Shown piece by piece: positions 351-55,300 of a stretch of 64,000 bases of DNA. Numbering within the stretch: position 1 is the stretch's first letter; each line of letters starts with the position of its first letter. A program made the translations under genes and the position numbers. The notes beneath the pieces were generated by a model. It made no database searches. It worked only from the letters and a program-made list of their open reading frames with translations, and was not told where the DNA came from. This DNA is from Geosiphon pyriformis uo1 (taxonomy: Eukaryota > Fungi > Glomeromycota), in the NCBI GenBank assembly GCA_016748015.1, contig JAAOMT010000503.1:732305-796304 (forward strand), given 5' to 3'.

Positions 351-2239
351 ATGAAAAAGAGCAGCTAATAATATTTAAAAGTCACAAAAGAAACAGAAAG
401 AAAGACATGATAGTCAACTACTAGACAAACCAGTGGAATTCAAGATTGGAGACAAAATACTCTTACATCATACCAAAGCAGAAAAACAATGAAGTGGAAA
501 ATTTGACCCCAAATGGGATGGACTATTTCACATAAAAAAAATTCTAGGAAATAGAGCTTACAAATTAAAACTGAATAACAAAATTTTAACCAAAGCAGCA
601 CATGGAGATTGACTGAAACCATACCACAACATTACACTACCATCTACCAGTAATATTCCACAATTAGGAGTACAGAGAATACTAGTCCAACCAGATAAAA
701 TTCCACGAAATCTGGAACCAATTGTTATTATTAACAACAACATGTTAAATTGATCCATTAAAAGAATATATAAAGACATAGTAGATACAACAGAAAATAT
801 CAGAAAAATGGAAATTACAGACAACATTCACTCACTAGCACAACAACTCTTTCAATTAATCCAACACCAGGAAATGGAGATTACAATCAATCAACAAACC
901 ATTTGATATCAAGATACTAGAAAGACATTTCAACTCAGAACACAGAGGAAAACTGAAAATACTGTGGACAAAATTATGGCAAAAGTAAAATTAGCAATAA
1001 GAGAGTCGACAAAAGAGGCACTATATCAAGAGTTGACTAAAGAAACTTGGAATTGGTGGATACAACAATTTCCAAGAAACTATTGTTATTTTTACTTGGG
1101 ACAACACATAAATATCCAGAATCTATATATGGATAAAACAAAGCAATTATTTGACAAAAGAATACTACAACAATTAGAACATTTTGTGAGAAAGAACAAC
1201 TTATCCACACAGGCCCGAGCCATATACCAAATACACACAGCATTTTAGGATAGATCAGAAATATTACTCAACAAAGCAATGGATATGGTTACCAGTAATC
1301 AATTAGGAAAGATCACCAATACTCAATTTGAAGAATTACAGACCCAAATAACACAAGTAATTCTCAAAAACAAAATCCAGGAAATACTTCAAGAGGGTGA
1401 ATTAAATAAGTTGGATTTTGATGGAGCTCAATATTAAAAGGAGAAAATAATGTTACTCATAGAAATATAGAAAATATATTAGCAGGAGTAGTAACCAATT
1501 AAAAGTAGACATAGTAAATATGGAATTTCAGGATTCCCTGATGAGGAATTGCAGGATTCCAGAATTCCAGGATTCTTCTCAAAGGAATTGCAGGATTCCA
1601 GAAATTTCAGAATTCCTGTCGTGAAGAATCAAGGAATTGAGAAATCTCAATTATGTATATATAGCAGCAGAATTAGAAGCTAAAAAGAGAGACCTCTCAG
1701 TGTAGATTAATCTAAGCAACCTTCCAATTCTCAATTATCAAATAAATAATTATTTTATATCTTAATCCACTCTCAATTATTAACACTTCATGTTGATAGT
1801 AATTGATACTTAACCATACTGGAACAATAGTTTTTGATCATGGCTATTGACGAGATACTAACTTACCAAATTGTCTTGGCTTATCTTTATTATCATTATT
1901 TTCTTTATTTTATTTATTTCTTTCTTTGATTCTGTTGTGTTTACTAATTGATTGGGGATTAAAAGTGCTGAGTTATTGATGTTATGGATAGCTTGGTAAA
2001 AGACCCAGAAATAAGAATAGATTTATATATATTATCAGTTAGCTTACCAAAAGGACACAACTACCAGAATAAATCTGGCCACCAAGCTAAGACTATCAAA
2101 TCTCTGTCTATTATACAAAAGACTCCATCAAAACCTTCAGATACAACACTTTCATAATATCATTGACAGAAATAGCTTTTGAGCACTAAGTTATGGGTTT
2201 GTTATTTGACTTGAGACTCCAAATAATTCAACTATAACA
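351..2239 (+). mobile_element. Gypsy family A copy A1, 3' part: integrase C-terminus, unknown domain (742-1437), PPT, 3' LTR (1451-2239)
   Basis: Closely matches 51310-53239. GPF-type integrase tail, ORF end DGAQY*, purine tract before TGTTACTCATAG, LTR ends ACTATAACA. Confidence 0.9.
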
Positions 2240-7700: not shown

Positions 7701-10700
7701 CAAACTGAACATTCTAGTTTTGGTCTGCATTGTTGACAGTTTCTTTGTGGACTTGCCTGGTTCTATTTGGATCTTCCTTCACTCCTCCAAGTTGATATGG
7801 CTGGTAGTCCTGTTCTTTGGTCATCAGCCCATGAGAGCTGATAAGTTTTGATGACTGGTAGGATTAGATTTTTTTTAAATTTGAAGGTGGGTCTTTGGTT
7901 GGTGCTGGGTTTTTAGAAGTGGCCACATGTGGCTGGAATTCTGGCATGGTGGCCATTATAGCTGATAAAAAGCTCTTGGATGGTCCAGTCTAATGTGGCA
8001 TTGGCTTTTGTTAGCCAGTCATTTCTTACTAACACTTAATATTATGTAGTATCCATTACTAATACTTTTGTAGGTATTATTATGCCATTAATTTCAAAAG
8101 GAAATGAGTCAATTTTGCCATGAGACAGCTTAGTACTTCCATCAACTGTTATAATTTGGGACATTGTGGCATGATCAACTTTGAAACCCAGTTGGTTTAC
8201 TAGTTGAAGCATCACAATGCTTCTGGTGGATCTACTGTTTAAGATAAGTTTGATTGGCATGTTGTTTACTTTTGCTTCCATGTATATAGCAGTGATTGGG
8301 CATTCTTTGTTCAATGCTGCTCCACTAAACATAGCCTCTTTTTTCTCTAATTCAAAAGGAAAAATAGCTGTGAGGCTGCTATCTTTTGTGACAATGGCTG
8401 GTAGTATTGTTTGGATCAAGTTCTGGTTATTGGTAATATTTTTGGTTCTAGGTATGTTACTATTAATATTTCTGAGATTTAAGTTTTCCGATATATTAAG
8501 GTAAGTTGGCTGAAAATTTGAGTAGTTTGAGTAGTTTGTGTTTGTTTGCTAATTAGGTCCTATACAATTAGGATTTCTAGTAATAATCACATTTTGACTT
8601 AATACTGGCTGGCTTCGAAACTCTGGACACCAGTTTGGATTTGAAATCACTGGTCATTGCTGGTAAGTTCTTTGATTTTGGTATGTAGTGGAGTATTGAT
8701 GTGATATTGGCATGTATTGATTTCTGAGCATTTAGGGTGGCATGTAATAATTATTCTCACATGTTTCATGTATCATTCACATTTGATATTAACTAATTAA
8801 ATGTCCTATGTATTTACAAAAATGACAGGCGCACGTTTCTGTTCTGAAGTCCTGGCATAATAAGTGATTATTTTGGCTGCCGCTGAATTCCTGGTTGTGT
8901 CTTTGTGGTGTTTGATATGTGTTATTTCTTCCTGGGTCTGAGATGAGGTAACTTTTTATTTTCTTAGAGAGTTCCTTCCCTAATTGTGTTACTCTTTTTT
9001 CTAATGTTTCTGTCTTGTTTTTCTCCATTACCATGTTAACCATTTGACTATGATTAGCTTTTTTCTCAGCCGATTCAAGGGCTCTGGCAAGTGTAATGGC
9101 TTCTGGTAATAAATTAGGGTGGGCAGGGCATACTTTTTCTAAAATGCTGCTTTTTAATCCTCTAATAAATTGATTTAAAACCTGAGAATTGGTATAGTAT
9201 CCTTGCTTAATTGCTTCAATTTGACAGCAAATTTAATTGAATCAAGCAAAGTATTGGGTAACAGTTTTACCTGTACTTTGCTTGATAGTATTGAATTCGT
9301 TTAATTGAATTATGGTGTTTGGGTTGCTAAAATACTCCAAGAGTGCATTTTTGAATTTGGCAAAGCTTGTGGGTTTTGTTTTCAAGCTTTGATATCATGA
9401 GTTGGCAGTGCCTTTCAGAAAGAAAAGTAACATTTGGATTACTCTTTGATCATTCCAGTTATTTGCCTGGATGGCTTTTTGTGCTTTTTTGAGCCATGTG
9501 TGCATGTCCATTTCTTCTTTCTCTCTTGAAAAATCTGTTAATTGTGCAATATACAGTGTGGCCATTTCATTGTTGTTTCCTGCTGGTGGGTTTATTGGTC
9601 TAAGAGAAGATGGAATGATATTTTCTTGAGTGTTCCTAAAAGTGGCTTCACTTATATCCAGTTTTTCTTCTTAATCATGAGTTTCTTGGTTTTTGGACTG
9701 GCTGCTTGTTTTTTCACTGGTTTCTTCAGATTCCAATTCAGATTTTTCTTCATGGTTTTCAAACCCACTCCGAATTTTGGTTGAAAAAAAGGTTTTTGGA
9801 ATAGCAATGAATATCTTTTTGTGATTGGTATATTTTCCCAATTGCATTGTTTGAGCTTCTCAGTGTAATTAGAAGTTCTCGGTATTTGTGGGGTTAATGT
9901 GAATGATGATGCAGCTCCTAATGAGAGTTGGATTTTATTATCTGGGAAAAAATGGTAAGATCTTTTTTCTGTCAAATGAAGGCATTGTTTCTTTACTGAT
10001 TGCACAATGTTTTTCTTGGGCATTTGGGCAGTGTTACTCATAGAAATATAGGGAATATATATTAGCATAGTTATTAGCTAATCAGAAATAGATGTAGTAA
10101 AATGTGGAATTCCAGGATTTCTCTCAGGAATTGCAGGATTCCAGGAATTACAGGATTCTCACAAGGAATCGCAGGATTCCAGAATTCCAGGATTCCTCTC
10201 AAAGAAATTGCAGAATTCCAGGAATTCCAGAATTCCTGTTGTGAAAAATTGAGGAATTGAGGAATCTTAATTATGTATATATAGCAGTAGGATTAGAAGC
10301 TGAAAAGACAGACCTCTCAGTTTAGATTTAATCTAAGCAACTCTCCAAATCACAATTATCTAATAAATAACTATTTGTTATCTCAAATCTATTTCCACTA
10401 TCAACACTTTATGTTGATAGTAATTGATACTTAACCATACTGAAACAATAGCTCTTGATCATGGCTATTGACAGAATACTAACTTGCAAATCATCTTGGC
10501 TTATTTCTTTTTTTTCTTTATTTTCTTTTCTTTTCTTTATTTTCTTGCTTTGATTTTATTGTTGTTTACTAATTCTATTGAGGATTAATGCATGGGGCAC
10601 TAACATCAGGATAAACGTGACTGGTAAAAAACCCAGAAATAAGGATAGAACACTCAATTGAGGATAGCTTACCAGAAGGAATACTGGCCATCAAGCTAAG

Positions 10701-11290
10701 AAAGAAACTGACGAAACTGCAGTTTCAGGAAGCTATGGATAAAACTATTACCATTGAATCTCTGTTCATTATACAAAGAACTCAACTAAACCCTTCAAAT
10801 ACAAAACCTTCAGATACCAAATCTTCAAATCATCGACAATGAAAATAGCTTTGAGCACCAAGTTATGGGTTTGTTATTTAATCCAACACCAGAAATTGTC
10901 ACCTGTAATAGTGGGTGTTCCTAATTTTTGCTGATTTTCTTGATTAGTTTCTAAATTTTTTTTGGCTTTGTTGGTGCATTCCTTAATGTTTTCTGTGGAT
11001 ATTGGAAAATTTTTATTGGCATATTGCTCAATTTTGCAATAAATGTTGACAATAATCATGGCTATTACTACTTTCTTTGTAATGTATTGTAATAATTCTC
11101 TATACAATCTAAGTTTCGTGTTGTGTAGTTCTTTTTTTCCTATGTGGTAATTTATTCTGGCATTGATATAATAAGTGAGAGCAGATTCTGCTGGACAACA
11201 CCCTTCTGGTAATCCAAGATCACTTTGATTTTGTGTGTAAATAGCATGGCAGAATTCAAGAACAGTAAGGGTAAGGATTTTTGTTACCAC
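4732..11290 (-). pseudogene. Degenerate Gag-Pol polyprotein of element C, interrupted by a solo LTR-A
   Basis: ORF-track fragments 10874-11290, 8789-9043, 8042-8419, 7316-7687, 6605-7105, 6089-6598, 5194-5710 and 4732-5100 fall in canonical domain order, with many stops. Confidence 0.88.
10032..10910 (+). mobile_element. Solo LTR of family A inside the gag region of element C
   Basis: TGTTACTCATAG...ACCTGTAATA with no PBS or PPT. Flanks GCAG and GTGG fit a decayed GCGG TSD. Confidence 0.92.
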
Positions 11291-13048
11291 TTTTGTTTCT
11301 TTTTTTTTAGCAATAAATTATTGCTAATTATTATTTTTTTTTTGATTTTCTTTCTTCATAAGGTTCACCAAATGTTATGGAGGTGTTTTCTTGGTATATT
11401 TTAATTGTTGATTTCTCGTTTTAATTACAATCAGTTTTTCGTGAGTTTTTTTATTTTATGTGTTGAATATTAATGATGATGTACTGAAAATTTTCTCTTG
11501 ATGTTGTGATGTAAATCTTCTCTTTAATTCTAATTGTCTTTGTATATTGTGTATTCTTTCCCAGAGACTAATCTAAAATTTACCTGCTGTCTGGGGTCTT
11601 CTCTGAAGCTATTCTTGCAATTGCCTGATGTGTTTCTCTAATCTAGAAACATGGAATGTTAATAGTCTTTTTGCGATTTCTCTAAGTATATAATAAAGCT
11701 TTTTCAATTTAATTAGTAACCATGTGAATAATTTTGATCAGGAATTATTCTTCCAAAGAGTTCAGAGATGGAATGATAGTTTCATTCACTAGAGAGGGTA
11801 TGTAAATTCTATTATTAATCTTGTAATTATGATATTCATTCAATTTATTATTTTTTTTATTAATTCTTTTTGAATAAAATTTTATTTATATATTTGTTGC
11901 TTTTAGTTGAAGCTTGTTCTATTCTTTATCATTAAAAACTATTGTATATATATATAATTATTTTACAAAATAACATCTTGTAATACTCTATTTTTATTAT
12001 TTCTAAATAGTGTTTGCTGCTATTGTGAAATAGTGCTTGCTGCTTTTGCATAATAGTGCTTGCTATTATTGTAAAATAGTGCTTGCTGCTATTGTAAAAT
12101 AGTGCTTGCTGTTATTTGTAAATTATTTTTTTTTTATAACTTGTTGCTGTGCTATTTTATAATTAGCTAATTTATATTATTTATAATTCCTATTAAATTC
12201 TTGAACTGTAACAATGCTGAGAAAGAAATTTGATGAAACTGCAGTTTCAGAAAGCTATGGATAAAACCATCAATTAAATCTCTGTCCATTATACAAAGGA
12301 CTCAACCAAAACCTTTAAATAAAAACAAAGTACCAATATTACTAACATCATCCACCAGATTAATTATTGAGCACCAAGTTACGAATTTGTTATTTGATTT
12401 GAAACCCCAAATAATTACTTGTAACAATGTCAACAAGAGAATCACAAATTTTCTAGAAAGACCAATTGACATTGAATTAGCAAGAGAAAATTTTTATACA
12501 AAGTTAATCTAACATACCAGCTTATCATAGAATTACAGTTTTGCACCAATTATTAAAGAAATTAATTAAAAAATTGAAAAATACACTCAACAACAATTTC
12601 TTATTACCTATGCAAATAAGGATAAAAAAAAATTACAAACACCAGCAGTAATACCAAGAAAAATACAATTACCAACATAGAAGAAACAAAAAATTGAATT
12701 CCCACTATATCCATCATATCATCACACATCCAGTAGTATTATTAACATCTCAACAGATGCATCCACATCAAACACAACATCAACATTTGGACAACTTCCA
12801 TTTCAAAGTAAACAAAAGAAAGTAGAATTATTAGGAATTTATAGCAATTACTTTGAAGGATTTAAATTGTGATCCCCAATGCTATCAGAATTCCAATCAC
12901 TACCACCTCAACCAGATTTTAGAACTGCAAGTTCCTGAGAGATAACAGTGTTACCTGAGTAGAAAAACCAAAAAGCTATGAAAAAACGTGACTAAGAAAT
13001 GTAACAAAAAAAACGTGGTACAACTCGAGGTAACACAGAACAAATATG

Positions 13049-19662: not shown

Positions 19663-21888
19663 ATGCCAGAACGTGCACATGATACTGATGCAGGGTTTGA
19701 TCTGAGATATCTGAAAAAAGATCTCATCAAATTGGAACCCCATTTGCATATCTGCATTGATCTTAAAATAGCACTAGAAATTTCAGCAACAACAATGGTT
19801 CAGTTAGCATCTAGGAGTAGCTTAACCAAAAGAAGAATCAACATTAGGAGAGGAATAATTAATGTAAGATACATAGGAAATATTATTGCTATGCTACAAA
19901 ATGACTCAGAAAAAACATATATTATAGATCTAAATGAAAAAATAGTACAGGCAATATTCCTGCCTCTAATTAAAATAGCTCAATTAGTATCAGTGAGAAA
20001 CAGAGAAAAATTAGGGATAACAGCAAGAAGAATACAAGAATTCGAATCCACAGGTAGAATAGATGTACCAGTTAATATGACAAAGAAAGAAATTGTTGAC
20101 AAGGAAGAAATTATCTCCATCTGTCAATTAATTTTCATTCCACCATATGACCAGTACATGGTAACTATAGAGAGAAAAATAAAGAATCAGGTTCAGATTT
20201 TTGAGACAGAAGCAACACTTTGTGAATTAAGAGAGATTGGATTAGTCAATCTACACATATCAGCTAAGAACCACAGTTACATCAAAATTTCCATTTACAA
20301 CAACACAGAAAACGTCATCAAGATACCAGAAAGAACCACCATTGGATATTTAATCACAAAAATTGAAGAACAACTACCAAATTCTATTCTAGACTTTTCA
20401 CAACTGTGTGAATATGTAAATATCACATCACAAACAATATATGGACAAGAAAAATATTATCTGCTCCAACCAGAACAATTGGAACAGCTGAATTTGGGAA
20501 ACTTAAATTCATTTCAACAAATGCAACTCAAGATATTACTTAACAATTTCAATGACATCTTTGCCAGTAAAAATAAATTTGGCAGAACTAATATAATTCA
20601 GTACCAGATTAAAACTGGAGATGTAATGCCAATAAAACAAAAAGCATATAGAATACTATCAGCCAGCCATAAGATTATTCATCAAAAAATCAACCAAATG
20701 CTTGACAACAGACTAATTCAGTTATCAATAAGCCCATGGTCATCACCAGTGGTACTAGTCCAGAAGAAGAATGGAAAGATCTGTTTTTGTGTGGATTATC
20801 GAAAATTAAATGGGGTATCTAAAGGTAATAGCTATTCAACTTCAAAGATCTAAGAACTGTTCAATGCTTTTAGAGGAAAGAAATGGTTCTCAACTTTAGA
20901 CTTAGACAGTAATTACTGGCAAGTAGCCATAAAGACAGAAGATAAAGAAAAAACAGCTTTTACAACATGGGAAAGAAATTTTGAATTCAAAGTTATGCCA
21001 TTTGGCTTGATAAATGTGTCAACAATATTCCAATAACTCATGAAAATTGTTTATACTGGACTACTGTAGAAATTTGTAGTTGTTTACTTAGACAACACAA
21101 ATGTGTTTTCCAAAACATTTGATGACCATCTATATCATCTTCAACAAGTATTTGAAAGATTGAAAAAAGCAGAATTGAAGTTAAATGCAAACAAATGTTT
21201 TTTTGAAAAAACAGAACTCAAATTCTTAGGACATGTGGTGAGCAAAGATGGCATCAAAACAGATCTGGATAAGATTACAATAGTAAAAAACTTTCTAGTA
21301 CCAACTAATTTGACAAAACTAAGAGCATTTTTAGGATTCACAGACTATTATCAATATTTTATCAAGGACTTTTCTAAACTGGCTCAACTATTTCATTATC
21401 TACAAACCAAGAATATAAAGTACAAATAGACAGAAGCTCAACAAGAAGTGTTTAACACACTGAGAAGAAAACTTATTCAAGCTCTAGTACTGATCTATTC
21501 AGATTACAGTAAACCATTCATTATTACTACAGATGCATTAGGCCAAGCATTGGAAGCAGTACTATCACAGAGAAAACCAGATGGAAGAAAACATCTAGTA
21601 GTATATACCAGCAGAAGCTTAAGTCCAGCTGAAAAAAACTATAAAACACCAGTATTGGAACACTTAGCAATCTATTGGGCAGTCATGAAATGGAAAGAAT
21701 ACTTGAGCCAAAAGTTTGAAGTATATATAGATTACAAAGAATTGACTTCAATCCAGAAGCAAAAATTTGGAGATGATCACCATGCCAGATGGAAAATAGA
21801 ACTTTCACCATTTAATTATACAGTACATTACAAAAAAGGAAAAAAAAATAGAAATGCCGATGGATTGTCACAAATAAAACAAATCTAA
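19663..21888 (+). pseudogene. dUTPase-RT-RNase H region of A3
   Basis: ORFs 19663-20853, 21103-21429 and 21448-21888 share a frame and are separated by premature stops. Confidence 0.9.
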
Positions 21889-21921
21889 AAAAACATTTCA
21901 ACCAAAAAATATAATAAAAAG

Positions 21922-23987
21922 ATGAACATACAAAAATATCAACAACTTCAATATTATATAAATACTTAATTGTTCAAGGAGAAATTATTTTAAAAAAAAC
22001 AAAACAACATAAAACAGCAATTAAAATAATTTATCAACCATCAAAATATACTTTACCAGAAGAACAAAAGAAATTCAGATCAACCAACCAAAGTGATTAC
22101 AGAACCAGAAAAAGAGACAGTATTATTTAACATGCACTCAGATCCAACAGCAGAACATTTTCACAAAGAAGCAATCATGGAAAGAATTAGAAAAAGATAC
22201 TATTGGCCATTAATGTATCCAGATATCATTCAATATGTTCAAAATTGTGATGCTTGTCAAAGAAGAAGTGGAACAAAACCCAGTGAATCATTAAAACCAA
22301 TTAAAGTGAGACAACTATTTGACCATATTAAAATTAACTTAGTCGGACCATTAACTATTACCAGCAGAGGCAACAGATATATTGCAATAGCCATGAATTA
22401 TCTCACAAAATGACCAGAAGCAAAAGCCATTCAAAGAACAAATGCAGAATTCATTGCTGAATTTGTTCATCAAAATTTGATCTATTGACATGGATGTTCA
22501 AAAGAACTATTATCAGATCAAGGAACTCATTTTGTGAATAAAACATTAGAAAAATTAAGTCAAAGATTTGGAATTAAAAAACTATTGTCATCATCATACC
22601 ATCCACAAACCAATGGATTAGTTAAAAGATTCAATAGAATATTGTGTAAAGCAATTGCCAAAATCAGCCAAGAAAATCAAGATGAATAAGATTTGTTTAT
22701 ACCATCAGTATTATTTACTTATTGGACAATGAAGCAAGATACTACACAAACAACACTATTTGAATTAGTATATGATAGAACAGCAATACTACCAGTAGAG
22801 ATAAAAGTACGAACATATCCAACAGAACCAATAACAGAAGAGAATTTCCAAAGAACATTGTTGAGAAGAACATATGACTTAATAGAAACACTAGAAAACA
22901 AAAGGCGAAGAACAGCTGATAACATACAAAAGTCACAAGAAAAACAAAAAGAAAGACATGATAACCAACTATCAAAGAAACTAGTTGAATTCAAGATTGG
23001 AGACAAAGTACTTTTACATCATACTAAAGTGGAAAAACAATGGAATGGAAAATTTGACTTTAAATGGAACAGACCATTTCACATAGAAGAAATTCTTGGA
23101 AATAGAGCTTATAAATTAAGGTTGAACAACAAAATCTTAACCAAAGCAGCACATGATGATCAACTGAAACAATATCACCATATGGCATTATCATCCATCA
23201 GTAAGATTCTACAATTAAGAGTACAGAGAATACTAATCAAACCAGATGAAATTTCATAAGATCTAAAACCAATTATAATCATTGAACCAAATATGTAAAA
23301 TTGAACAACCAAGGAGTATATAAAAGACATGATATATGTGACAAAAGACAACAAAAAATAGAGATTACTGACAATATTCACTCGCTAACACAACAATTCT
23401 TTCAACTGATCCAACAACAGAAAATAGAAATTACAATTAACCAACAAACTATCAAATACACAAACACCAGAAAAGAAACACAAAATAAAATATAGAGAAA
23501 AACAGAAAATACTGTTAACAAAATAATCACAAAAGTAAAATTGATAATAGAAACACAAACAAAAGTAATCTAATATTAAGAAATGATTATAGAAACTTGA
23601 AATTAGTGGATACAACAATTTCCAAAAAACTTTTTTTATTTTTATTTGGGACAACATTTGAACATTCAGGGCTTGTACACAGATAAAACAAAATTATTAT
23701 TTGACACAACAATACTGCAACAACTAGAACAATTTGTGAAGAAGAACAATTTAACCACATGAGCAAGAGCCATTTACTGGCTACACACAAGATTTCAAGA
23801 TTGGCCAGAAATCTTACTCAATCCAGAAATGGACTCTATTACCATCAACCAAATAAAAAAAATAACAAATACATAATTTGAAAACTTACAAAACAAGATA
23901 GCACAAGTAATTTTTGAAAAAGAAGTTCAAAAAATATTCAAAGACAGAAAATTAGAATTAAGAGATCTCAATAAAGCTTAATATTAA
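21922..23987 (+). pseudogene. Integrase plus in-frame C-terminal unknown domain of A3
   Basis: ATG at 21922 (MNIQKYQQL). HSDPTAEHF...CDAC, LSDQGTHF and NGLV-RFNR motifs. Confidence 0.88.
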
Positions 23988-40776: not shown

Positions 40777-43224
40777 AGCCAATCCTCTGTAAGATCGATC
40801 CAAATTCTAGGCTCCTCCTTTCTCTATGTCTATAATGTTTGGCGATTAGTTGACGTAGCTCTTCTTTTGAATTACTTGCCAGCTCAAAATTACTTTGATA
40901 AATGATAAATCCTAACCTATTCAGGATAGGTCTTTGTGCAGTGCGTTGATCACACTGTAATAAAAAATTTTTTTTATTTTCGTCAAAGTATTACGTAATA
41001 GAAGCTTTTACAAGAATTTCTTTATAAAAAAGATTATTGGTACAATTGATCTTTAATATAGCTTTTTAACAATTTTTTTGGTATAATTCTTTTATAATCT
41101 ATACAAGTTGTTATGCTTAATTAATTATAAACATGAATTATGCAGTTTTAACACATAATCAATTATTTAGATTTTTGTTTAAATTAAATTATGTTAATTA
41201 AAAAACAGAATTATTTTTAAAGCATTTATTTTAAATATAAAGTAATTTAAATTTAATAATAAAATTTATAATTTAAAAACACTATTTTGTTTAAAAAAAA
41301 TTTTAACTTTTTTTTATTTTATTATTATTAAAGTTTTTTGTAATAAATTTTTTTTTGAACTTAATAAAATTTTTAAATAATTTGCTTAATACTTTATAAA
41401 AATTTTTAATTTAAGTTTTTACAAAAAAAAATTTTTTGTTTTTATTTAAAACTAAACAGTTTTATTAAACAAAAAAATAATCAAAGTTATTAAAAACCGA
41501 TAAGCTTAATTATAAATTTTATTAATTAAAACAGATTTATAATTAAGTTTTAAAAAAACCAATTTAAAATTTAATAAATAAAAAACAGTTTTAAAATAAA
41601 ATATTAAATCAATATATTAATTTATAAAAATCTTAAAAACTTAAAAACAAATTTTAATAAACAATTTTATACTTAAAACTTTATTTATTTATTAAGTAAA
41701 GTCCAACTGCTATCTAATACATAGAGTCAAACTAAGTGACCCAAACTAAACACAATTTATGCACTTACTACATATGGCTAGCCACTCAGGCCAGTCAAGG
41801 CAACACTACACACCTATATTAACATTAACGACACCACCTAGACCAGAAAAAAAACAGCACGGCAAATAATAACCAAAGCTAACAGTAAATAATTCAACCA
41901 CACCAAGCATTCTAATCACTCCACCCGACAATATAGAAGAAATATCACGAGACAGACCAGAAACAACCCCACCATCAGCAACCAAACCAGCCCTCTTCAT
42001 TTGTACTCTGTGCTTAGATCTCATCAACTATGCCTTCACATGATGTAAATCAGCTACAAACCTAACAAAACCGACAACCTCACCAGTGGCCTGCTTCTTA
42101 TCTTCAAACACACCTCGAGCTTCTTCACACCATTCATCCAGCATGAAGCTCTTATACACAATAGAATACAAACCAACATCTAAAGAACAGGCAGACAATG
42201 TCTGCAAAACAGCTAAAGACGACGAGTTACAAAGACCTGCCACCAAAATCCAATAAGCAAAAGCCTTAACCAGAACCTCATCACAAATAACAACATTCCT
42301 AAAGCACATGAAAGCATGGTCAGAAAATTCCACTCTACCACACAGCAAGCACAATACACCAAGATAATTTCTATCATACAGTTTTTTTTGAACAGCTACT
42401 GAAAAGCACCTGTTGTTACCAGACAAAATTAAAGATATTGTTTAGCATAAAAATACTCTTATAAATCTTATTATTAATTAGCATATATTATTGTTTCAAA
42501 TTATCACTTATTACACTAGCAAAATGTCCGAAATTATCATTTAACTAATAACCCAATTTGTACATAACACAAATATAACCTAAGTACAATGATCAATCAT
42601 GCAATATCCTGAAATATGTAACATTCAAAAGTTCGCCGAAATTTGTAGAAATTTGCCGAAATAATTGATAGTTTACCAAAATATCTAATAGTTCGCAGAA
42701 ATAACTTGTAGTTTGCTGAAATGTATCTTTAGTTTAGCAAAATTGTAGAAAAAAGCAAAGTTCAAGTTTATAGAATAGTGTTATGACAAGTTGTATAAAA
42801 GAAGAGCTTTTCTCTTCAAAAAAATGTATCTTATTTTAGATTTATTACTTAGAACCATTTCTATACACACAAAAAGAAATAAATATCAAATAAATTCAAA
42901 AAACAAAATTCTTTAATTATTGTACTTGGAAAATCCCCAAAATCCAACTAACATTTTGAAATTAATTAGCTACCAATTTCAGTAAACTGTTAGTGACTCC
43001 AGGCCTGAATAGAAAAACGTTTCCCTTGATAAAATTCTATTTCTTTTATTTTTCTTTTTTTTTCTTATTACAATCATTAGGGTAGCCTACAGACAAGATT
43101 CCTGTAGAAGAGTTGACTTTCACAGCAAAGTAACTACACATTTTTAGTGAGCTTTCAGATGATGTTACTCATAGAAATATAAGAAATATATTAACATAAT
43201 TATTAGTCAATCAGAAGTAAGCAT

Positions 43225-43385
43225 AGTAAATGTGGAATTCCAGAATTCCTCTCAGAAATTGCAGGATTCCAGGAATTTCAGGATTCCCAACAAAGAATTG
43301 CAGGATTCCAGAATTCCAGGATTTCTTTCAAAGGAATCGCAGGATTCCAGGAATTCCAGGATTCCTGTCATAAAGAATTGAGGAA
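43225..43385 (+). repeat. GGAATTGCAGGATTCCAGGAATTCC-type short repeats in U3 of LTR-A (present in all A LTRs)
   Basis: Visible upstream of the TATA-like TATATATAG; copy number varies between LTRs. Confidence 0.8.
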
Positions 43386-44019
43386 TTTTAATTATGTATA
43401 TATAGCAATAGTGTTAGAAACAGAAAAGACAGAATTGATACCACAGAATCCTTAACCTAGAAACACAATTATCAAATAAATAATTATTTCATATCTCAAA
43501 TCCATTCCCCACTATCAACCCTTCATGTTGATAGAAATTGATACTTAACCATGCTGGAACAATAGCTCTTGATCACAGCTATTGACGGAATGCTAATCTG
43601 CAAATTGCCTTGGCTTATTTCTTTGCTTTTTTTATTTTTTTTTATTTTTTTTTTCTTATTTTATTTTTGATTTGTTGTTATATACTAATTGATAAAAGAT
43701 TAAGCGCTGAGTTATTGATGTTAAGGATAGCCTGATAAAAGATCCAGAAATACAGGTAGGATTTTATATATTATCGGATAGCTTACCAGAAGGGCATGAC
43801 TGCCAGACTAAATCCGGCCACCACGCTGAGAAAGAAATTGGGAAAACTCTTGGAAAATATATCTACTATCGACATTATTGAATCTCTGTCCATTATACAA
43901 AAGACTCAACCAAAACCTTCAGATACAGCATCTTCAGAACAGTCTCAATGAAAGTAGCTTTTGAGCACCAAGTTATGAGTTTGTTATTTAATTCAAAGCA
44001 GAAATAATTACCTGTAACA

Positions 44020-44081: not shown

Positions 44082-47000
44082 GTGGCAGAATCAGAAATTA
44101 TAGGAGCAAACCATTTAGGATTTGCAAAATCTTTATTTCAACACTATTGTCAATACTTGGAATTAAACCACAATCATATATCTACTGAATTAATCTTCAA
44201 TTTTTACGTCAACGAAAAGATTTCCTTTTTATTAGGAACACTAGTGAATACTGAATCAGCAAGAGAAACTTTCTATAAAGAATTAATTCAAAACACCAAC
44301 CTACCAACAAATCATAATTTTGCATCCATCATTACTGAGATCAACAAAGAAATTGAACACCACACTCAACAAAAATATCCAATTACATATGCTAATAAAG
44401 GCAAAGGATAATTACAAACACCAGCAGTAACACCCAGAAAATTACAGCCACCTGCTTGGAAGAAAAACAGAGTTGAATCCCCAAGCAATCCATTCTACCA
44501 CTATACACCTGGAAGCACCATCAACATATCATCAACCGATGCGTTCTCATCAACTGCAACATCAGCATTTGGACGATTCCCATTCCAAAGTAGACAAAGA
44601 AAAACAGAATTGTTAGAACCATATGGTGAATACTTTAAGGGATTTAATTTGTGATCATCAACCCCATCAGGACTTCGATCACCACCGCCTTCACCAGATT
44701 TCGGAATCTCTGATCTGTGGGAAGCAGCAGAATCAGAAAAAGAGGAAGAAGAATTAGAGGATCAAGAATTTACTTACCAAAACCCAATTACTGAAAGCCC
44801 AGAAGTTGAAACCCTGAATCTTCAAGCTCAGCAAAATTTAAATATAGACAATTTGAAAATCGAAACTCCGAATCAGCAAAGACAGAACAATCCAAAACCT
44901 GAATTAATTAATTAGCAAAACTTACCTCTGATAATCGTCATTGATCAACCGCTGATTAATCCAGTAGCTGAACCTATACAACAGCCACTTCAACTACCAC
45001 CCCAACAACTACTTCAACAGCCACCACAACCACCTAACTTAAACCCAATGGCCTATGCACCCATCGCAAAACTTGACAACTTTACTGGTGAAGAGGATGA
45101 TGCTCAAGTATGGCTGAATAATGTAGAAAAGACCATCACAGCCAACAGATGGAATAATGTCCGAGCCATGCAAGCCATTCCCTACTTTCTCAAGAATACT
45201 ACCAATTTATAGTATCAGAGCTTGGTTAATAAACCACAAGATTTCAATGCCTTCAAAGTGGAATTCCTAAGATACTTTAGCAACAACAATAGCATCAATT
45301 GCCTAGTCAATACATTTACCACCATGAAACAAGAAGAAACTGAAGCAGTCACCACTTACCTGGGATGCTTCCATCGAAACTTGTGCCAAATTCAAGCAAT
45401 TGACAACGACTATTTCACAGCACCACAGATACTCAACCAGTTTATCCATGGCTTACGCAGCAGCATCTTGCAACATGTACATCTGTTGTATTCTGGTATG
45501 CTTCAAGACACAGTCACACGTGCCAGAGATTTTGAATCTACTGAGTTAGAGGCTAATCATGTCCAAGCCGTTAATCTAGTAATGAACGGATCATCTGAAT
45601 TGGATTCTAAATTGGAGAAGTTCAGTGAATCAATCAATAAGAGATTGGAAGGATACTTAGCTGACAATTACGCCATTTATCAGTCTTCACAATGACACAA
45701 TAACCAAGAACATCCTAATCGTGGCCAAAATCAACCATGTCCATCTTCATCAACCAATCAATAGTGACAACAGGAAATGCATATCTGCCACTATTGTGGT
45801 AACCAAGGACATATCCAAATTGACTGTCACCAGCATTTAAATAACCAATGATTAGGAAATCAATATCGAAACCCCGATCGCTGGTTTCAAACTCCGAATC
45901 ATTATCCAAATCAAAGTCAAGACCAATATTGGAATAATTACCTGCCAATGACGCAGCAACCAATCTATCAACCGCCAGTATATCAACCTCCGATTTATCA
46001 GCTGCAGCCACAAGTAATATATCAACCACAGCCACAAATTATCTATTAACCCCAACCAATTCAAACACTACCCCAGAACCCAGCTCAAATGACATCAGGC
46101 AACCCTCAATCCAGAATCACTCAAAACTGGAGATCAGCAATGGTTGTTCACCAACCAATTCCCCATTCACTAGATCCACCATCAAGATCACACACCTAGA
46201 ATTTGGATACCAGTCATGTCCAAAACCCAAATTCCCAACATTATTTAAGTCTCCTGGTTACCCCAGAAAATGCCACATCTAACAACACAGAATCCCATCA
46301 GCATGTACCTACCAACACAATTTCACCAGCAACCATCTTTAGCGACGAATCCCTAGCAGCTATCTTTCCTTTTAAACTTGAAGAAAACACACTAATACCA
46401 TTATTCAGTGGAGCTGCCCTCGAAGAGAAACCTATAACAGCAATGTACACGGATGCCAGAGTTAATGGTCATCTCATCAAACTCATCCTAGATAGTAGAT
46501 CAGCTGGCAGCATAATCACATGACAACTCATGGATCAATTAGGTCACTGAGTTGATCAAGCTGCCAGCGCCAGAATTATCACAGCTGACGGAGTGACCAA
46601 AACTCCAATCGGTGAAATTGACGAGTTTCCTTTTGAAGTCAATGGCATCGTGACTTCTATTAAAGTTCTAGTAATAGAAGCCACTCAATACCAAGCTCTC
46701 GTTAGTAATAACTGGCTATCAAAAGTCAACGCAATGTTAGACTGGAACACCCAGGAACTCCAGCTAATGTATTAGGGCCAACACATATGTGTTCCGGCCA
46801 CATGTGGCCACTTCAAAACACCTCCAAGAGAAAAACTATTGATCGAACTGGAGGAGGAGAAAGAAAAGCCTACCAAGTATTGTGGGCTGACGAAGAGCAC
46901 AATGAGCTGCCACCAATACTCTCCTGGGACGACAACAACAAGAAAAAAGGGAAACAAAAAAAAGAACTTACCTGGAAAACCGATAACCTGACATGGACCG

Positions 47001-50000
47001 ACAACAATGAGAGCAAACCGACTTCAAGCTGGAAATGGGAAGAAGACAAAGAAAATAAAGGGAAAGGAAAAGAAAAAGAGACCACTCAAACCACTACCAC
47101 TTATAACACCCACACTATACCACAACAATCTACCTATCGTCGACCTAAGCTTATATGCGTCGATTGCAGTAAGAAATTGTCGTCAATGGGCGCATGCTGT
47201 GGCGACAATGAGGAATACCACACTACAACAAAATTCTACTGTCATCCATGCTTATTCGAATGCTTTGGACGACCAAAAAGACAAGAAAAATGGGATAACC
47301 AACCTTGTCTCGCTTGTGGGGAGACCTGCTAGATGAAGAAATGTGGAATGACATCTCAGGATGTAGAGAAACATGTAATGTATTGTGTCAATACACAATT
47401 CTAATAAGCAACTGGGTAAGGAAAGAAACCTCAATGGAAGCAGTCTGGCAAAGAGCCGTACAGCAACTAGACAGTTGTCCACATGATGACGATAAAATAT
47501 GGCAAATGGCACTTGCCAAAATTGAAGGGGCGATGCCAGAAGAGATAAAAATGATTAAAGACAACCCCCCAGAACTTTTAGAGCTTGACTGGGATGCAAA
47601 ACCCATCATAAACCTCCTGGATCTAGAACAATTCCACGAACACTACCAAGAATTAGCACCCACAAGGGAAGAACAAAAACAACGATTAAAGCAGTTGAAT
47701 GCTCGACTATGTTAACACTGCCTAATTCCCTGTGACTTCTAGTATTGTGATGAGTGTGACCTCATCTACAATCTACCACCACGCATGATCTACTTGATCC
47801 CTGAAGAAGAAGAACCAATCAGCAGCTGTGCATCAGAATCAGAATCGCCAATCAATTGTGATTCAAACTCTGACGATGACGACGATAACAATGGTTCAAG
47901 CTCTATTCAAATTGGCAATGATGACAAAAACAATTTAGACTCAGATTTAAAACCCAATGTAAACTATGAACAATACATTGCACTACCAGATCTCTCCAAG
48001 GAACAAGAGTTGAAATGGTATAGTGACAATAGGGAAGGTATTATGCCAGAACGTGCACATAACACAGATGCAGGGTTTAATCTGAGATATCCAAGAAAAG
48101 ATGTCATCAAATTAGAACCGCATTCATGCACCTGCATTGATCTGAAAATAGCACTAGAAATTCTGGCAACAACAATGGTTCAATTAGCATCTAGGAGTAG
48201 TTTAGCAAAAAGAGGGATCAATATAAAAGGAGGAATAATTGACATGGGATATGTAAGAAATATTATCGCTATGCTACAAAATGACTCAGAAAAAGCCTAT
48301 ATAATAGAGCCCAACAAAAAGATAGCACAGGCAATATTCCTGCCTCTGATTAGAGTAGCTCAGTTACTGTCAGTGGGAAAGAGGGAGGAATTGGGAATAA
48401 CAGCAAGGGGAATACAAGGATTTGGATCAACGGGTAGAATAGAGATATCAGTTAATATGATGAAGGAAAAAATTGTTGGCCAAGGAGAAATTATCTCAAC
48501 TGGTCAAGCTATTTCCATTCCACCATATAGCCAGTACATGTTAGCAATAGAAAGAAAGGAAAAGGAGCAAGAACAGATTTTTGAAGTGGAAGCAACCCTT
48601 TGTGAATTAGGAGAGATTGGGTTGATCAATCTCTACATACTAGCCAAAAGCTATAACAGCATAAAAATTCCCATCTACAACAACACTGGCAATATTATCA
48701 ACATACCAGAAGGAACCACCATCGGATATTTAATCACAGAAATAGAAGACCAATTACCAAACTCCATTCCAGACTTTCCACAACTTTGTGGATATGTTGA
48801 CATTACATCACAAACAATCTATGGACAAGACAAATGTTATTTGCTCCAACTAGAACAATTGGAACAAATGAACATGGGAAACTTAGATTCACTCCAATGT
48901 ATGCAGTTCAAGATGTTACTTAACAATTTCAATGACATCTTTGCCAGTGAAAATGAGTTTGGCCAAACTGACATTATCCAGCATCAGATTAAGACTGAAG
49001 ATGCAATGCCAATTAAACAAAAAGCATACAAAGTGCCACCAGCCAGCCACAAGATTATTCGTCAAGAGATAAACAGAATGCTTAACAATGGATTAATTCA
49101 ACCATTAATGAGTCCATGGTCATTACCAGTGGTACTCGTCCATAAAAAAAATGGAAAAATCTAGTTTTGTGTAGACTACAGGAAACGCAATGGTGTAACT
49201 CGTGGAGACAGTTATCTAACTCCACGAATACAGAAATTATTCGATGCTTTCGGTGGGAACAAATGGTTTTCCACATTAGATTTGAACAGTGATTACTGGC
49301 AAGTAGCCATGAATTCAGCTGACAAGGAGAAGACGGCATTTACTACTAGAGAAGAGAATTTTGAATTTAAAGTAATGCCATTTGGCTTAACCAATGCCCC
49401 AGCAACTTTCCAATGGCTAATGGAAATTGTTTATACTGGCTTATTGTGGAAATTAGTAGTTATATACTTGGACAACACCAATGTATTCTCAAAGACATTT
49501 GATAATCATCTTCATCATTTTCAACAAGTGTTTGAAAGACTAAGAAGAGCAGGACTAAAGTTAAATGTGACAAAGTGCTTCTTTGGCAAAACAGAACTCA
49601 AATTCTTGGGACACATAATCAGCAAAGACGGCATCAAAACAGATCCAGAAAAAATAGAGATAGTAAAGAACTTTCCAGTACCGACCAATATAACAGAACT
49701 GAAATCATTCTTGGGATTTACCAGTTACTATCGTCATTTTATCAAGAATTTTTCCAAGATAGCACAGCCATTCAATTAACTGCAAAACAAAAATGCGAAA
49801 TATGAATGGACAGAAAGTCAACAAAAAGCTTTTGATATTCTGAGGAAAAAGCTCATCTAAGCTCCAGTACTGATCTATTCAGATTACAGCAAACCATTCA
49901 TTATCACTACCAATGCATCCAGTCAAGCATTGGGAGCAGTATTATCTCAGAGAAGACTGGATGGCAGAGAACATCCAGTAGCATATGCCAGCAGAGGTTT

Positions 50001-50268
50001 AACACCAGCTGAAAAGAACTATGAAACACCGGAACAAGAACACTTAGCAATATACTGGGCTGTCATGAAATGGAAAGAATACTTGAGCCAGAAGTTTGAA
50101 GTATACACAGATCACAAGGAATTAACATCACTCCAAAAACAAGAATTTGGAGATGGAAGACAGTCAAGATAGAAAATGGCACTCGCACCATACAAGTATA
50201 CTATACATTACAAAAAAGGAAAAGACAACAGAAATGCTAATGGTTTATCGCAAATAAGACAAATTTAA
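44082..50268 (+). pseudogene. A4 polyprotein: N-terminal extension, capsid, CCHC knuckle, aspartic protease, Cys-rich domain, dUTPase, dUTPase-like relic, RT, RNase H
   Basis: FTGEEDDAQVWL; CHYCGNQGHIQIDC; LILDSRSAGS; DAGFNL/ASRSS/GGIIDMGY/KIAQAIF/RGIQGFGSTG; VMPFGLTNAPATFQ, YLDNT; RNase H ending NANGLSQIRQI*. Two small frameshifts at ~46870 and ~47325. Confidence 0.93.
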
Positions 50269-50331
50269 GAACATTTCAACCCAAAAATATAATAAAACCA
50301 GAACAATACCAATAGAAAAATACAACAAAAG

Positions 50332-52396
50332 ATGAACATACAAAAATATCAACAATTACAACATTATTTAAACACTCAACAATTCAAGGAGAATTTATCT
50401 CATACGGAACAAAGGAGTATCAAATACCAATTAAAATATTTCATCACTCACCAAAATATATTTTATCAGAAAAATAGAAGGGATCTAGATCAACCAATCA
50501 AAGTAATTATGGAGCCAGAAAAAGAGACAATATTATTCAATATGCACTCAAATCCAACAGCAGGACATTTTCACAAAGAAGCAACCATAGAAAGAACTAG
50601 AAAAAGATACTATTGGTCATTAATGTACCCAGACATCATTCAATATGTTCAAAATTGTGACGCTTGTCAGCAAAGAGGAGGAACAAGACCCAGTAAACCA
50701 TTAAGACCAATCAAAGTGGAACAACCATTTGATCATATGGGAATTGATTTAGTAGGACCATTAACAATCACCAGCAGAGAAAACAGATACATAACAGTAG
50801 CTATGGATTATCTTACTAAATGGCAGAGACAAAAGCAATTCAAAGAGCGGATGCAGAATCCATTGCCAAATTCATTTATCAGGATTTAATTTGTCGACAT
50901 GGATGTTCAAAAGAATTATTATCAGACCAAGGAACTCATTTTGTGAACAGAACATTAACAGAATTGAGCCAAAAATTCGGAATCAAGAGACCATTATTAT
51001 CATTATACCATCCACAAACCAACGGATTAGTAGAAAGATTTAATAGAACATTGTGTGAAGCAATAGCCAAGCTCAGCCAAAAAAACCAGAACGATTGGGA
51101 TTTGTTCATACCATCAGTACTATTTGCTTATTGGACAACGAAACAAGATACTATACAAGCAATACCATTTAAATTAGTATATGGGAGAATAGCAACATTA
51201 CCAGTAGAGAGAAAAATTAATACATATCCAGCTGAACCAATAACAGAGAAAAATTTTTAAGAAACATTGCTGAGAAAAACATATGACTTAATGAAAACAT
51301 TGGAAAACAAACAAAGAAGAGCAGCTAATAATATCCAAAAATCACAAAAAACACAGAAAGAAAGACACGATAGTCAACTACCAGACAAACCAGTTAAATT
51401 CAAAATCAGAGACAAAGTATTACTACATATACCAAAGCAGAAAAACAATGGAGTGGAAAATTTGACCCCAAATAGGACGAACCATTTCACATAGAAGAAA
51501 TTCTAGGAAATGGAGCTTACAAATTAAGATTGGATAACAAAATTTTAACCAAAGCAGCATATGGAGATCAACTAAAACCATATCACAACATCACACTACC
51601 ATCTACCAGTAATATTCCACAATTAGGAGTACAGAGAATACTAGTCCAACCAAATAAAATTTCATAAGATTGGGAACCAATCATTATTATCAACAACAAC
51701 ATGTTAAATTGATCCATCAAAAGAATATATAAAGACATAGTAGATGCAACAGAAAATATCAGAAAAATGGAAATTACAGACAACATTCACTCACTAGCAC
51801 AACAACTCTTTCAATTAATCCAACACCAGGAAATGAAGATTACAATCAATCAACAAACCATTCGATATCAAGATACTAGAAAGACATTTCAACTCAGAAC
51901 ACAGAGGAAAACTGAAAATACTGTGAACAAAATCATGGCAAAAGTAAAATTAGCAATAAAAAAATTGACAAAAGAGTCACTATATCAAGAGTTGACTAAA
52001 GAAACTTGGAATTGGTAGATACAACAATTTCCACAAAACTATTGTTATTTTTACTTAGGACAACACGTAAATATCCAGAATCTATATACAGATAAAACAA
52101 AGCAATTATTTGACCAAGGAGTACTACAACAATTAAAATATTTTGTGGAAAAGAACAACTTATTTACACAAGCCCAAGCCATATACTGAATACACACAGC
52201 ATTTCAAGATAAACCAGAAATACTGCTTAACAGAGCAATGGATCTGGTTACCAGTAATCAATTGGGAAAAATCACCAATGCTCAATTTAAAGAATTACAG
52301 ACCCAAATAACACAAGTAATTCTCAAAAACAAAATCCAGAAAATACTTTAAAAGGAAGAATTACATGAGTTAGATTTCGACGGAGCTCAATATTAA
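50332..52396 (+). pseudogene. A4 integrase (HHCC, DDE, GPF) plus in-frame ~230-aa unknown domain (51701-52396)
   Basis: Own ATG after the RNase H stop. HSNPTAGHF...CDACQ, GIDLVGP, LSDQGTHF, NGLVERFNRTL. Ends DFDGAQY* next to the PPT. Confidence 0.9.
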
Positions 52397-55300
52397 AAGG
52401 AGAGAATAATGTTACTTATAGAAATATAAGAAATATATTAGCATAATTATTAGCATAATTATTAGCCAATTAAAAGTAAGCATAGTAAATATAGAATTCC
52501 AGGATTCCTCTTAGGAATTGCAGGATTCCGATTTCTCTTAAAGGAATTGCAGAATTCCAGGAATTCCAGGATTCCTGTCATGAAGAATTGAGGAATTGAG
52601 GAATCTCAATTATGTATATATAGCAGTAGTGTTAGAAACAGAAAAGACAGAATCGATACCACAGAATCCTTAACCTAGAAACACAATCATCAAATAAATA
52701 ATTATTTCATATCTCAAATCCACTCCTCACTATCAATCCTTCATGTTGATAGAAATTAATACTTAACCACGCTGAAACAATAGCTCTTGATCACAGCTAT
52801 TGATGGAATACTAATCTGCAAATTGCCTTGGCTTATTTCTTTGCTTTCTTTATTTTTCTTTTATTTCTTTTTTTCTTATTTTATTTTTGATTTGTTGTTA
52901 TATACTAATTGATAAAAGATTAAGCACTGAGTTATTGATGTCAAGGATAGCCTGGTAAAAGACCCAGAAATATGGGTAGGATTTTATATATTATCGGATA
53001 GCTTACCAGAAGGGCACGACTGCCAGACTAAATCCGGCCACCATGCTGAGAAAGAAATTGGGAAAACTCTTGGAAAATATATCTACTATTGACACTATTG
53101 AATCTCTGTCCATTATACAAAGGACTCAACCAAAACCTTCAGATACAGCACCTTCAGAACAGCCTCAATGGAAGTAGCTTTTGAGCACCAAGTTACGGGT
53201 TTGTTATTTAATTTAAAGCAGAAATAATCACCTGTAACAACAAGCAATTCTTGGGAAAGAGTTGACATTTACTACAATGTAACTATACAAAGTAACTGGC
53301 ATGGAATTGGTCATTTCACTTATAAGCCCAGCAGTTCAAATTATAAGAGATAATTTGAAGATAAATTCAGTTACTGAAGGTTCAACCACATCCAAAAAAC
53401 GTGAATTCACAGCAAACAAGCATCGACAACATTTAAGAAAAGAGACCAAAAACCTTCGGTAACACTGTACACAGCTTTTATCAAATATGAGCACAAATTC
53501 GAAGTTTTCTGACCAGTAAACTCAGTAAGCATATGAGAGTCTGGATGCCAAATTTTTGTGGTAGAAATCCAGTCTATACACCCAACAAGATCAACAGGTA
53601 TCATACTCACACCAGGCCCAGCCTCTCAGTCAGCATGATTAATAGATCAAAAAATGTCCCTTACAAAGTGGCAGGCATTATCAGGGATTGCCATGTTTTC
53701 AGCCATCAAATAACACTCATAAACTCCAACCAACAAAGAGAAGGAAGATCAAGCAGCTTCCTCAGCTGCCAAATTAGCCTTGACATACCCAAAATGCCAG
53801 AATGGCCTTTAACTTTAACCCAGACCATCTTGAGATCTTTTTCCCTAATCAGATTGAAAATATGGTGTCTTTCCAACCAGCACCAATTATGAATCAGGCA
53901 TGGCACAAGACAACTTTGACAAGCAGACATCAATAGCAGCTTGGCTATTAGTATGCAAAATCACTTGACAAGAGGAAGGTACACACTCAAGAGCCAACAC
54001 AACAGCCTACAACTCAGCTAGAGTAGAGAATAATAGACCACCAACCACAACACCAACACTTCTATCTAAAACCAGAAAATACACAGCAGCACCACAAGCA
54101 GCATCAACCAAGCCAGCATTTCTCAAAGATCCATCAGTATACACCTCAAAGCAACTAGACCAGATATCATGCAACCCATCTTTTACCAGAGAAAACACCT
54201 CAGAATCTAAAATGTTTGTATCAACAGACTGAGCAAAACCAGCAGAACTGGAAGCAGAAAAGCCTTAAACCAACATAAACTCAGATGCGACTGAGAACCA
54301 ATAAGGCACAGGGCCCCATGGGTCCAACTTTTTCCAACAACAAAAGATTTTCCAATCTAGCACATGGTCTCTCTTATCCAAAATCCGATCACCAAAAGCA
54401 ACCCCAAAACACTTCAGAAAGCAAACAGAATTAAAATACTCAGAACTACCTAGAATTGACAAAAGTGGAAAACAACCTGGACTGTGAAAGGCATTGGGAA
54501 GGTTGTTAGCCAAAGAAAGCTTATTACTCAAAAAAATTTTTGCAATCCCAGCCAAAAAGTTGTTGACTGGACTAACACACAACTTGACAGGAAACTGCAA
54601 AGAATCCAGAGAAGCCCAGCCAAGAATCTGCAAGTCCAAAAACCTATAATTGAACAAACGCCCAAGGATCCCAGAGGCATTAGAAAAAGACACCAAAGCA
54701 GCAATTTTCCCTTCAGATTGCACTTGTTCAAAAGTTTTCAAGCCATACAAAGAAGAGTGATGTAAGGCAGCATCCAGAAAATTACAAGGCAAACCAGCTT
54801 TGAACTTAAGACCCTTTTTAACCATAACATCCTATTTGCAATAAACACCAGATAAAACAAAACTAAATTGAGTCTAGTAACTAACTATAGGCTGCAAGAC
54901 AGCTGAGACCAAATACGAGAACTGTTTATCTGTAATAGCCTTCCTGAGCATGATGTTGACAAAAAAACGAACATCAGAATAAGCTTTAAACACACTAGGT
55001 TTAGAAAAACCCTCCGTAGACAAGAAGATATCCAGATAATAATGAGCTTTGCCCTTTTTAGCAATCAAGATTGGCTGACCACAAATACTCAGAGAGACAA
55101 TCCTAACACCCTGGTTAATGGGAATAGTTACCGTCTTATCATTATTAATAGAAATATCATTGATTTTGAAGAATTTACTGGCAATGTTCAGAGCATACTG
55201 AGTGAAGGCCTGACAATTTCCAATCCAAATTGTATCATCGACGAATGCACCAGCCGCCAAGTAAAACATCATCCCACCCACACCCTCAACTCTGCCCATC

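Follow-up and report, generated by a model that had tools for sequence, protein, structure and literature searches.

The window analysed here, i.e. the whole stretch of 64,000 nucleotides from Geosiphon pyriformis, contains the copies A4 and A3 and a partial copy of a retrotransposon family termed A and, on the minus strand, a copy of a second family termed C (Table 1). The window element is a decayed copy from an old Ty3/Gypsy lineage with a three-ORF layout, in which Gag-Pol ends behind RNase H, integrase has its own start codon and a small third frame (ORF3) follows. The two LTRs of A4 share 94.2% identity over 812 columns, all 47 differences being transitions, and its target-site flanks (43159-43162 and 53240-53243) are two transitions apart.

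Table 1. Features of the retrotransposon copies in the window, with positions counted from its first nucleotide.
Feature	Position	Strand	Remarks
Partial A copy	349..1437	+	integrase C-terminus, stop at 751, ORF3 ATG at 808
Family C, whole element	3585..12213	-	LTRs 3585-4405 and 11373-12213; exact 4-bp target duplication; without integrase
Family C, ATG 5 nt past the stop, then C-terminal half of ORF3, frameshifted	4419..4726	-
Family C, Gag-Pol stop past RNase H	4732..4734	-
A3, Gag-Pol stop TAA (21886-21888) and A-rich spacer of 33 nt	21886..21921	+
A3, integrase ORF, ATG at 21922	21922..23298	+	single frame, with decay stops
A4, 5' LTR (TG...CA), then PBS-like TGG	43163..44019	+
A4, capsid (Retrotrans_gag) and aspartic protease of Gag-Pol, decayed	45213..46721	+	Pfam
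A4, dUTPase inside Pol	48034..48435	+	Pfam PF00692, E 3e-19
A4, RT and RNase H, final Gag-Pol domains	49141..50265	+	PF00078, PF17917, PF17919
A4, Gag-Pol stop TAA	50266..50268	+	4 codons past the RNase H end motif
A4, spacer	50269..50331	+	63 nt; A = 60%; ATG-free; unfolded by prediction
A4, integrase ORF, own ATG at 50332	50332..51712	+	zinc domain, rve core, SH3-like (Pfam)
A4, ORF3, own ATG 54 nt past the integrase stop	51767..52396	+	predicted helical protein
A4, polypurine tract (52396-52409) and 3' LTR (52410-53239)	52396..53239	+

A cysteine-rich region and the dUTPase lie between protease and reverse transcriptase (RT) at 46900-48500, and likewise in A3 and C. The differences in the target duplications of A4, and in those around a solo LTR at 10032, are those expected between the two products that deamination of a single CpG can yield. 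At 25700-26900, 30900-37100 and 53400-59300 the window contains three repeats, related to each other, whose minus strand bears long ORFs and in which one weak RRM was nearly the sole Pfam match.

The junction between RNase H and integrase

In both A4 and A3, Pfam places RT and RNase H upstream of a stop codon and the zinc, core and SH3-like domains of integrase downstream of an ATG. A sequence-only reading of the window had proposed that a TAA terminates RNase H at the homologous place in A4, A3 and family C, where the stop follows NADCLSRMRHM, that an A-rich spacer comes next whose common sequence sits in different frames in A4 and A3, and that integrase then begins at an ATG (MNIQKYQQL in A4). 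All three observations were reproduced at the positions listed in Table 1. The alignment of A3 and A4 is free of indels over 48017-50267 (about 2250 nt) and over 50327-50823 (about 500 nt), and the spacer holds one 2-nt and one 32-nt indel, which puts the sequence common to both copies out of register. The spacer lengths are both multiples of three; that of A3 is open in frame, and that of A4 includes two extra TAA codons. For the spacers of A3, A4 and the nearest relative, L003, the predicted folding energy is 0 kcal/mol. The integrase ORF of A4 has lost single nucleotides near 50823 and 51429 and terminates with TGA at 51710-51712.

The stop might merely represent C-to-T decay in dead copies. 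The copies are indeed decayed, and their LTR changes consist of transitions only; however, the stop is common to A3, A4 and C. Within the aligned stretch from dUTPase to integrase, four private decay stops were counted in A4 and seven in A3; the two copies coincide in a single stop codon, the TAA behind RNase H. DNA read runs X2 and X3 gave no matching reads. In run X1, which contains A-family copies and is possibly the window's own source and thus not independent, many A4-private changes are minority alleles. Although position 50265, adjoining the stop, is C in 89% of this run, neither a majority sense codon at 50266-50268 nor an ATG variant was present among the best 40 of 290 differences; as all of these had shares above about 60%, the run rules out a majority sense codon only, and to that extent it agrees with the proposal of a fixed stop. 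Decay is furthermore contradicted by the 21 intact split relatives described below, and it appears scarcely credible as the source of the stop.

The assumption that Gag and Pol occupy a single frame held for family C, which can be followed over 1314 codons from capsid to RT with 19 stops, but A3 and A4 are frameshifted at differing places. The separate integrase ORF, conversely, was confirmed in A4, A3 and the relatives but not in family C, which supports the RNase H stop only. An integrase profile search between the family C LTRs gave zero matches, and the codon pair ATG AAT stands 5 nt after the stop. In the RT tree family C clusters with A3 and A4 (support 98). Judged from this one copy, its integrase may have been deleted after insertion, with the start codon left behind, or the element may move by means of an integrase supplied in trans.

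Split integrase and ORF3 in related elements

Metagenome DNA was examined because a length-matched protein search leaves out fused forms. The relatives were obtained by a pattern scan of metagenome contigs seeded by stand-alone integrases, and the best 80 of at least 572 confirmed loci were used. Of these loci, 51 included the end of RNase H as well as the start of integrase, while the contigs of the remaining 29 were without one of them. Integrase was split from RNase H in all 51 informative loci, so that the open frame across this boundary, named in the sequence-only reading as evidence to the contrary, was found in none of them; 21 of the 51 are free of stops in integrase and in the 430 codons that close RT-RNase H. 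Relative to Gag-Pol, integrase lies in frame 0, 1 or 2 in 13, 17 and 21 loci, respectively. The spacing extends from a 20-nt overlap up to several hundred nucleotides: after dereplication, 11 of the 46 junctions overlap or are at most 2 nt apart (TAATG and ATGA types included), 25 measure 15-98 nt and 10 measure 149 nt or more. L028 encodes an intact Gag-Pol of 1621 amino acids followed by integrase and ORF3, with capsid, protease, RT, RNase H and integrase in this order, and terminal repeats are present in L009, L016 and L075. We regard it as nearly certain that the split integrase is real and lineage-wide.

With the A3 integrase as query, 337 proteins matching it in length were obtained. The top 120 span 376-453 amino acids and start with MD, ME or MN in 102 cases; the named stand-alone relatives belong to Rhizophagus. 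Among the best 120 of 677 longer proteins, distantly related fused Pol proteins predominated. Rhizophagus and Cetraspora contributed four close matches (P0121, P0122, P0123 and P0128), which in the part listed lack both the integrase methionine and the end motif of RNase H; we infer that they are gene models joined through a false intron. In P0125, which is nested in the split clade beside P0123, RNase H and integrase are fused in frame. The split label changes twice in the integrase tree (FastTree, 135 rows) compared with 31.7 changes when shuffled, and a single change of the fused label suffices for the 74 rows of the RT tree, the base of which, common to four fused proteins, lacks resolution. 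These trees fit a single old origin of the split plus rare re-fusion (P0125). A scan of viral contigs produced three weak core matches only.

A fused Pol could still be produced if ribosomes read through the stop or shifted frame, or if the stop were spliced out with an intron. The spacer lengths of A3 and A4, the open A3 spacer and the fused P0125 are compatible with this explanation, and so is a readthrough-type TGA-CTA between protease and RT in nine loci of the lineage. However, all three frames and overlapping ORFs are seen, A4 has further in-frame stops, and copies in run X1 carry spacers from which 1 nt or 32 nt have been deleted. An in-frame GT-AG intron fusing the ORFs is impossible in A3, A4 and all loci with spacers of up to 50 nt; 13 of 51 loci would permit one, and 11 of these have long Pol tails that provide a GT by chance. 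Moreover, a conserved methionine with start context would be needless. Synthesis of a fused Pol is hence considered very unlikely.

The in-frame TGA-CTA was observed at L009:2498, L010:2882, L012:870, L034:86, L041:45, L048:902, L056:3290, L065:780 and L074:1955. A TGA followed by CTA is a readthrough-type stop context. Since it separates protease from RT, the protease sits on the Gag side in these nine loci; other relatives have a frame change or a single frame at this boundary. Pol tails of 220-340 amino acids past RNase H were noted in L023, L028, L030, L039, L051, L053, L067 and L076 and had no convincing Pfam match; most of these loci belong to the subgroup that carries the RNA element described below.

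Behind integrase, the relatives carry a family of 140-amino-acid ORF3 proteins, of which 22 members were aligned (e.g. L033:1596-2042). ORF3 comprises 140-230 amino acids overall, and its start overlaps the integrase stop in some loci. Based on profile comparison (probability 80%, E 1.4e-5) the ORF3 type of the window and L003 is probably a distant member of this family. The predicted structure is all-helical (pLDDT 95.5). No Pfam family was common to two members and no Atlas match was obtained; the best fold matches had an E-value of 0.35 (PDB) and 0.098 (viral structures) in Foldseek and a Z of 4.4 in VIA, by which a new fold is not shown. Ten ORF3-related proteins were looked up; eight are gene models of Geosiphon pyriformis, five of these being relatives of the window-type ORF3. 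In L022 (1945-2889) a 314-amino-acid ORF with a Nudix-like motif, recognised by eye, occupies the place where ORF3 would be.

Initiation at the integrase AUG

The integrase ATG has the features of a genuine start codon. A purine at -3 was found at 55 of 63 integrase starts (dereplicated loci) compared with 246 of 414 internal ATGs, and a G at +4 at 54 of 63, the latter partly reflecting the conserved second residue. Twenty-three of 30 spacers of 10-210 nt are ATG-free, more than in any of 300 dinucleotide shuffles (mean 15.7, maximum 21), though the depletion extends equally to AAT and GTA. The spacers of the intact loci L012, L034 and L041 measure 192-446 nt and cannot be passed by simple scanning because they contain 6-10 upstream ATGs. 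Some of the longest spacers look like early stops in the Pol tail, as L038 and L039, whose spacers measure 827 and 62 nt, respectively, are nearly identical.

Two groups of spacers have sequences in common. Those of L012, L034, L041 and L057 contain a motif with the palindrome GACATGTC, which is doubled in L041 and has no Rfam match, and those of the L001 group have U-rich tracts and TTAACGG-like repeats.

A YAG as splice acceptor occurs within 30 nt of the ATG in 35 of 63 loci, against 34.8 in shuffled sequences, and a TATA-like codon choice in 29 of 36 cases, against 25.4 expected (p 0.11); neither is enriched. In the 100 nt preceding the stop, 3 of 49 loci contain the TURBS-like UGGGA, which was absent from the 120 nt inspected in A3 and A4.

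The sequence-only reading had listed reinitiation, internal entry and subgenomic RNA as possible routes to integrase; this set is supported, and the evidence appears to favour reinitiation for the A family. We presume, at a probability only slightly above one half (about 0.55), that the elements form a three-ORF Ty3/Gypsy lineage which expresses integrase through termination and restart on the genomic RNA. In the observed layout, the Gag-protease-dUTPase-RT-RNase H frame terminates at the stop, the integrase frame starts at its own ATG and the third ORF lies behind it. The 40S subunit would be retained past the stop, traverse the A-rich spacer of 33-63 nt and restart on the same RNA. The integrase methionine would take the place of proteolytic cleavage at the RNase H/integrase boundary, the restart would keep integrase rarer than the single-frame Gag-Pol, and integrase may enter the particle via binding its template RNA or nascent Gag-Pol. 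Termination and restart is favoured because the acceptor, TATA, TURBS and fusing-intron searches were negative and the A-family spacer is short, ATG-free and unstructured.

Against a restart it has to be considered that the strong start context and the ATG-free leader can be reconciled just as readily with a subgenomic RNA, from which integrase, and ORF3 with it, might be translated after splicing from a 5' donor or transcription from an internal promoter. Env genes and the spliced Pol of foamy viruses are models for such an RNA. The long spacers carrying upstream ATGs, the subgroup-specific spacer motifs, which are possibly DNA elements, and the location of the third ORF in the env position also agree with it. 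However, acceptors are not enriched in the region examined, the 30 nt next to the ATG, and the only AG is lost from the RNA-element copies L033 and L050. A TATA signal was not found either, the codon concerned being TAC in A3 and A4, and the repeated stop/start overlaps are nothing that a subgenomic RNA would call for. A subgenomic RNA is a possible source of integrase, although we rate it as rather unlikely.

A 38-nt RNA element precedes integrase in a subgroup of the relatives (e.g. L039:4460-4504 and L021:51-96), where 23 of the 80 loci match its 45-position model at E < 1e-12, 21 of the 23 being the training set; two more matches were weak. Its 3' end lies 1-33 nt, mostly 4 nt, upstream of the AUG in the 22 loci with a located start. 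In a proposed three-helix structure 94.6% of 280 cells are paired and double changes occur at 8 of 14 pairs, figures which relatedness among the loci can inflate. None of 500 shuffles matched the paired cells or the covariation score, and slid controls were 24-45% paired. An alternative structure from RNAalifold, a hairpin with a 12-nt 5' bulge, is supported by a further double change. Folded singly, copies of the element do not surpass shuffled sequences (z -0.5 to 0.2). An Rfam scan of 31 loci gave three matches, all weak, below the gathering score and away from the element, and its pattern retrieved nothing from viral or prokaryotic collections. In the window the element was not found (best match E 0.1, elsewhere).

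The presence of this RNA element in 23 relatives also speaks against a restart, as it suggests a dedicated entry or tethering site that the A family lacks. The rarity of UGGGA, the upstream ATGs in long spacers, the equal depletion of AAT and GTA, the fused P0125 and the choice of the 80 loci from a scan seeded by stand-alone integrases weigh against it as well. Internal ribosome entry would be mediated by the spacer, either through the A-rich tract in the A family or through the structured element in the 23-locus subgroup; the covariation of the element and the tie of its position to the AUG rather than to the stop point in this direction. Its absence from the window and the shuffle-like folding of single copies do not. 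In addition, 33 nt would be very short for an IRES, and A-richness is typical of the whole retrotransposon. Internal entry therefore seems improbable.

Relation to known systems and implications

The element shows two LTRs, a PBS-like site, a polypurine tract, the domain order capsid, protease, RT, RNase H and integrase (Pfam) and, in family C, an exact 4-bp target-site duplication, and its RT and integrase group with Ty3/Gypsy Pol in FastTree trees among fused Gypsy-type Pol proteins. LTR, PBS, polypurine tract, capsid, domain order and the Ty3-type Pfam families are likewise found in the Metaviridae (yeast Ty3). Integrase as a pol domain was detected in none of the 51 loci, and the element is a Ty3/Gypsy variant, not a canonical member. 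The ICTV profile of the Metaviridae describes integrase in pol and one to three genes (gag, pol, env), whereas here integrase is an ORF of its own and the last ORF is small, predicted to be all-helical and without a match to Env (PMC7879559).

A second enzyme ORF past a stop is also present in LINE-1 and SART1. According to the available part of PMC5972666, a restart over a 63-nt spacer has been proposed for LINE-1 ORF2 and a restart has been shown for SART1, the overlapping UAAUG stop-start of which recurs in three loci here. Those elements are non-LTR and particle-free, whereas those described here keep the methionine constant in a strong context, and their integrase has to arrive in a capsid. 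The overlapping or adjacent stop-start in 11 of 46 dereplicated relatives resembles the TURBS of caliciviruses and influenza B and the stop/restart of hypoviruses, as far as they are covered by the same text (PMC5972666). Most spacers here are, however, longer than TURBS coupling favours according to that text. UGGGA, moreover, was limited to the 3 of 49 loci mentioned above. Caulimoviruses are, to our knowledge, without integrase. They belong to the same taxonomic order and have consecutive ORFs and a separate last ORF, and the TAV-dependent restart tolerates a few to 700 nt in the account given by the available part of PMC5972666. The general Pfam, Atlas and fold searches with ORF3 brought up no link to TAV. 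Integrases of the Gypsy type that begin at a start codon of their own occur in Ginger, GIN and Maverick, but in the available part of PMC2836005 these are DNA transposons or host genes, while here the ORF lies past RT-RNase H and inside the LTRs.

In the open-access literature searched, the available part of PMC12789967 included, no LTR element was found to be described as having integrase in an ORF of its own. Neither the available text of PMC3248453 nor that of a preprint on R. irregularis transposable elements (bioRxiv 10.1101/2021.03.30.436303) mentions one. New here are the conserved and, by prediction, helical ORF3 and the covarying RNA element, which had no Rfam match in the 31 loci scanned.

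LTR retroelements are taken to package integrase through its synthesis within Pol. A large, old and still intact lineage without integrase in Pol implies another route of expression and packaging. The relatives supply natural restart junctions ranging from a 20-nt overlap to 400-nt spacers, plus a small covarying RNA element. A cultured host exists, since the integrase of L021, which bears this element, is nearly identical to protein P0077 of Rhizophagus irregularis. The split integrase also explains odd gene models of mycorrhizal fungi, and intact elements of the split type risk being scored as broken.

A further reading, which we put forward tentatively as an unlikely one, is a polycistronic LTR lineage (Gag-Pol/integrase/ORF3) with a translation system of its own, in which the RNA element or the A-rich tract would load ribosomes at the integrase AUG, ORF3 would be a TAV-like transactivator or a protein binding the element, and integrase would act in trans. 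If this were true, integrase-less families such as C could spread.
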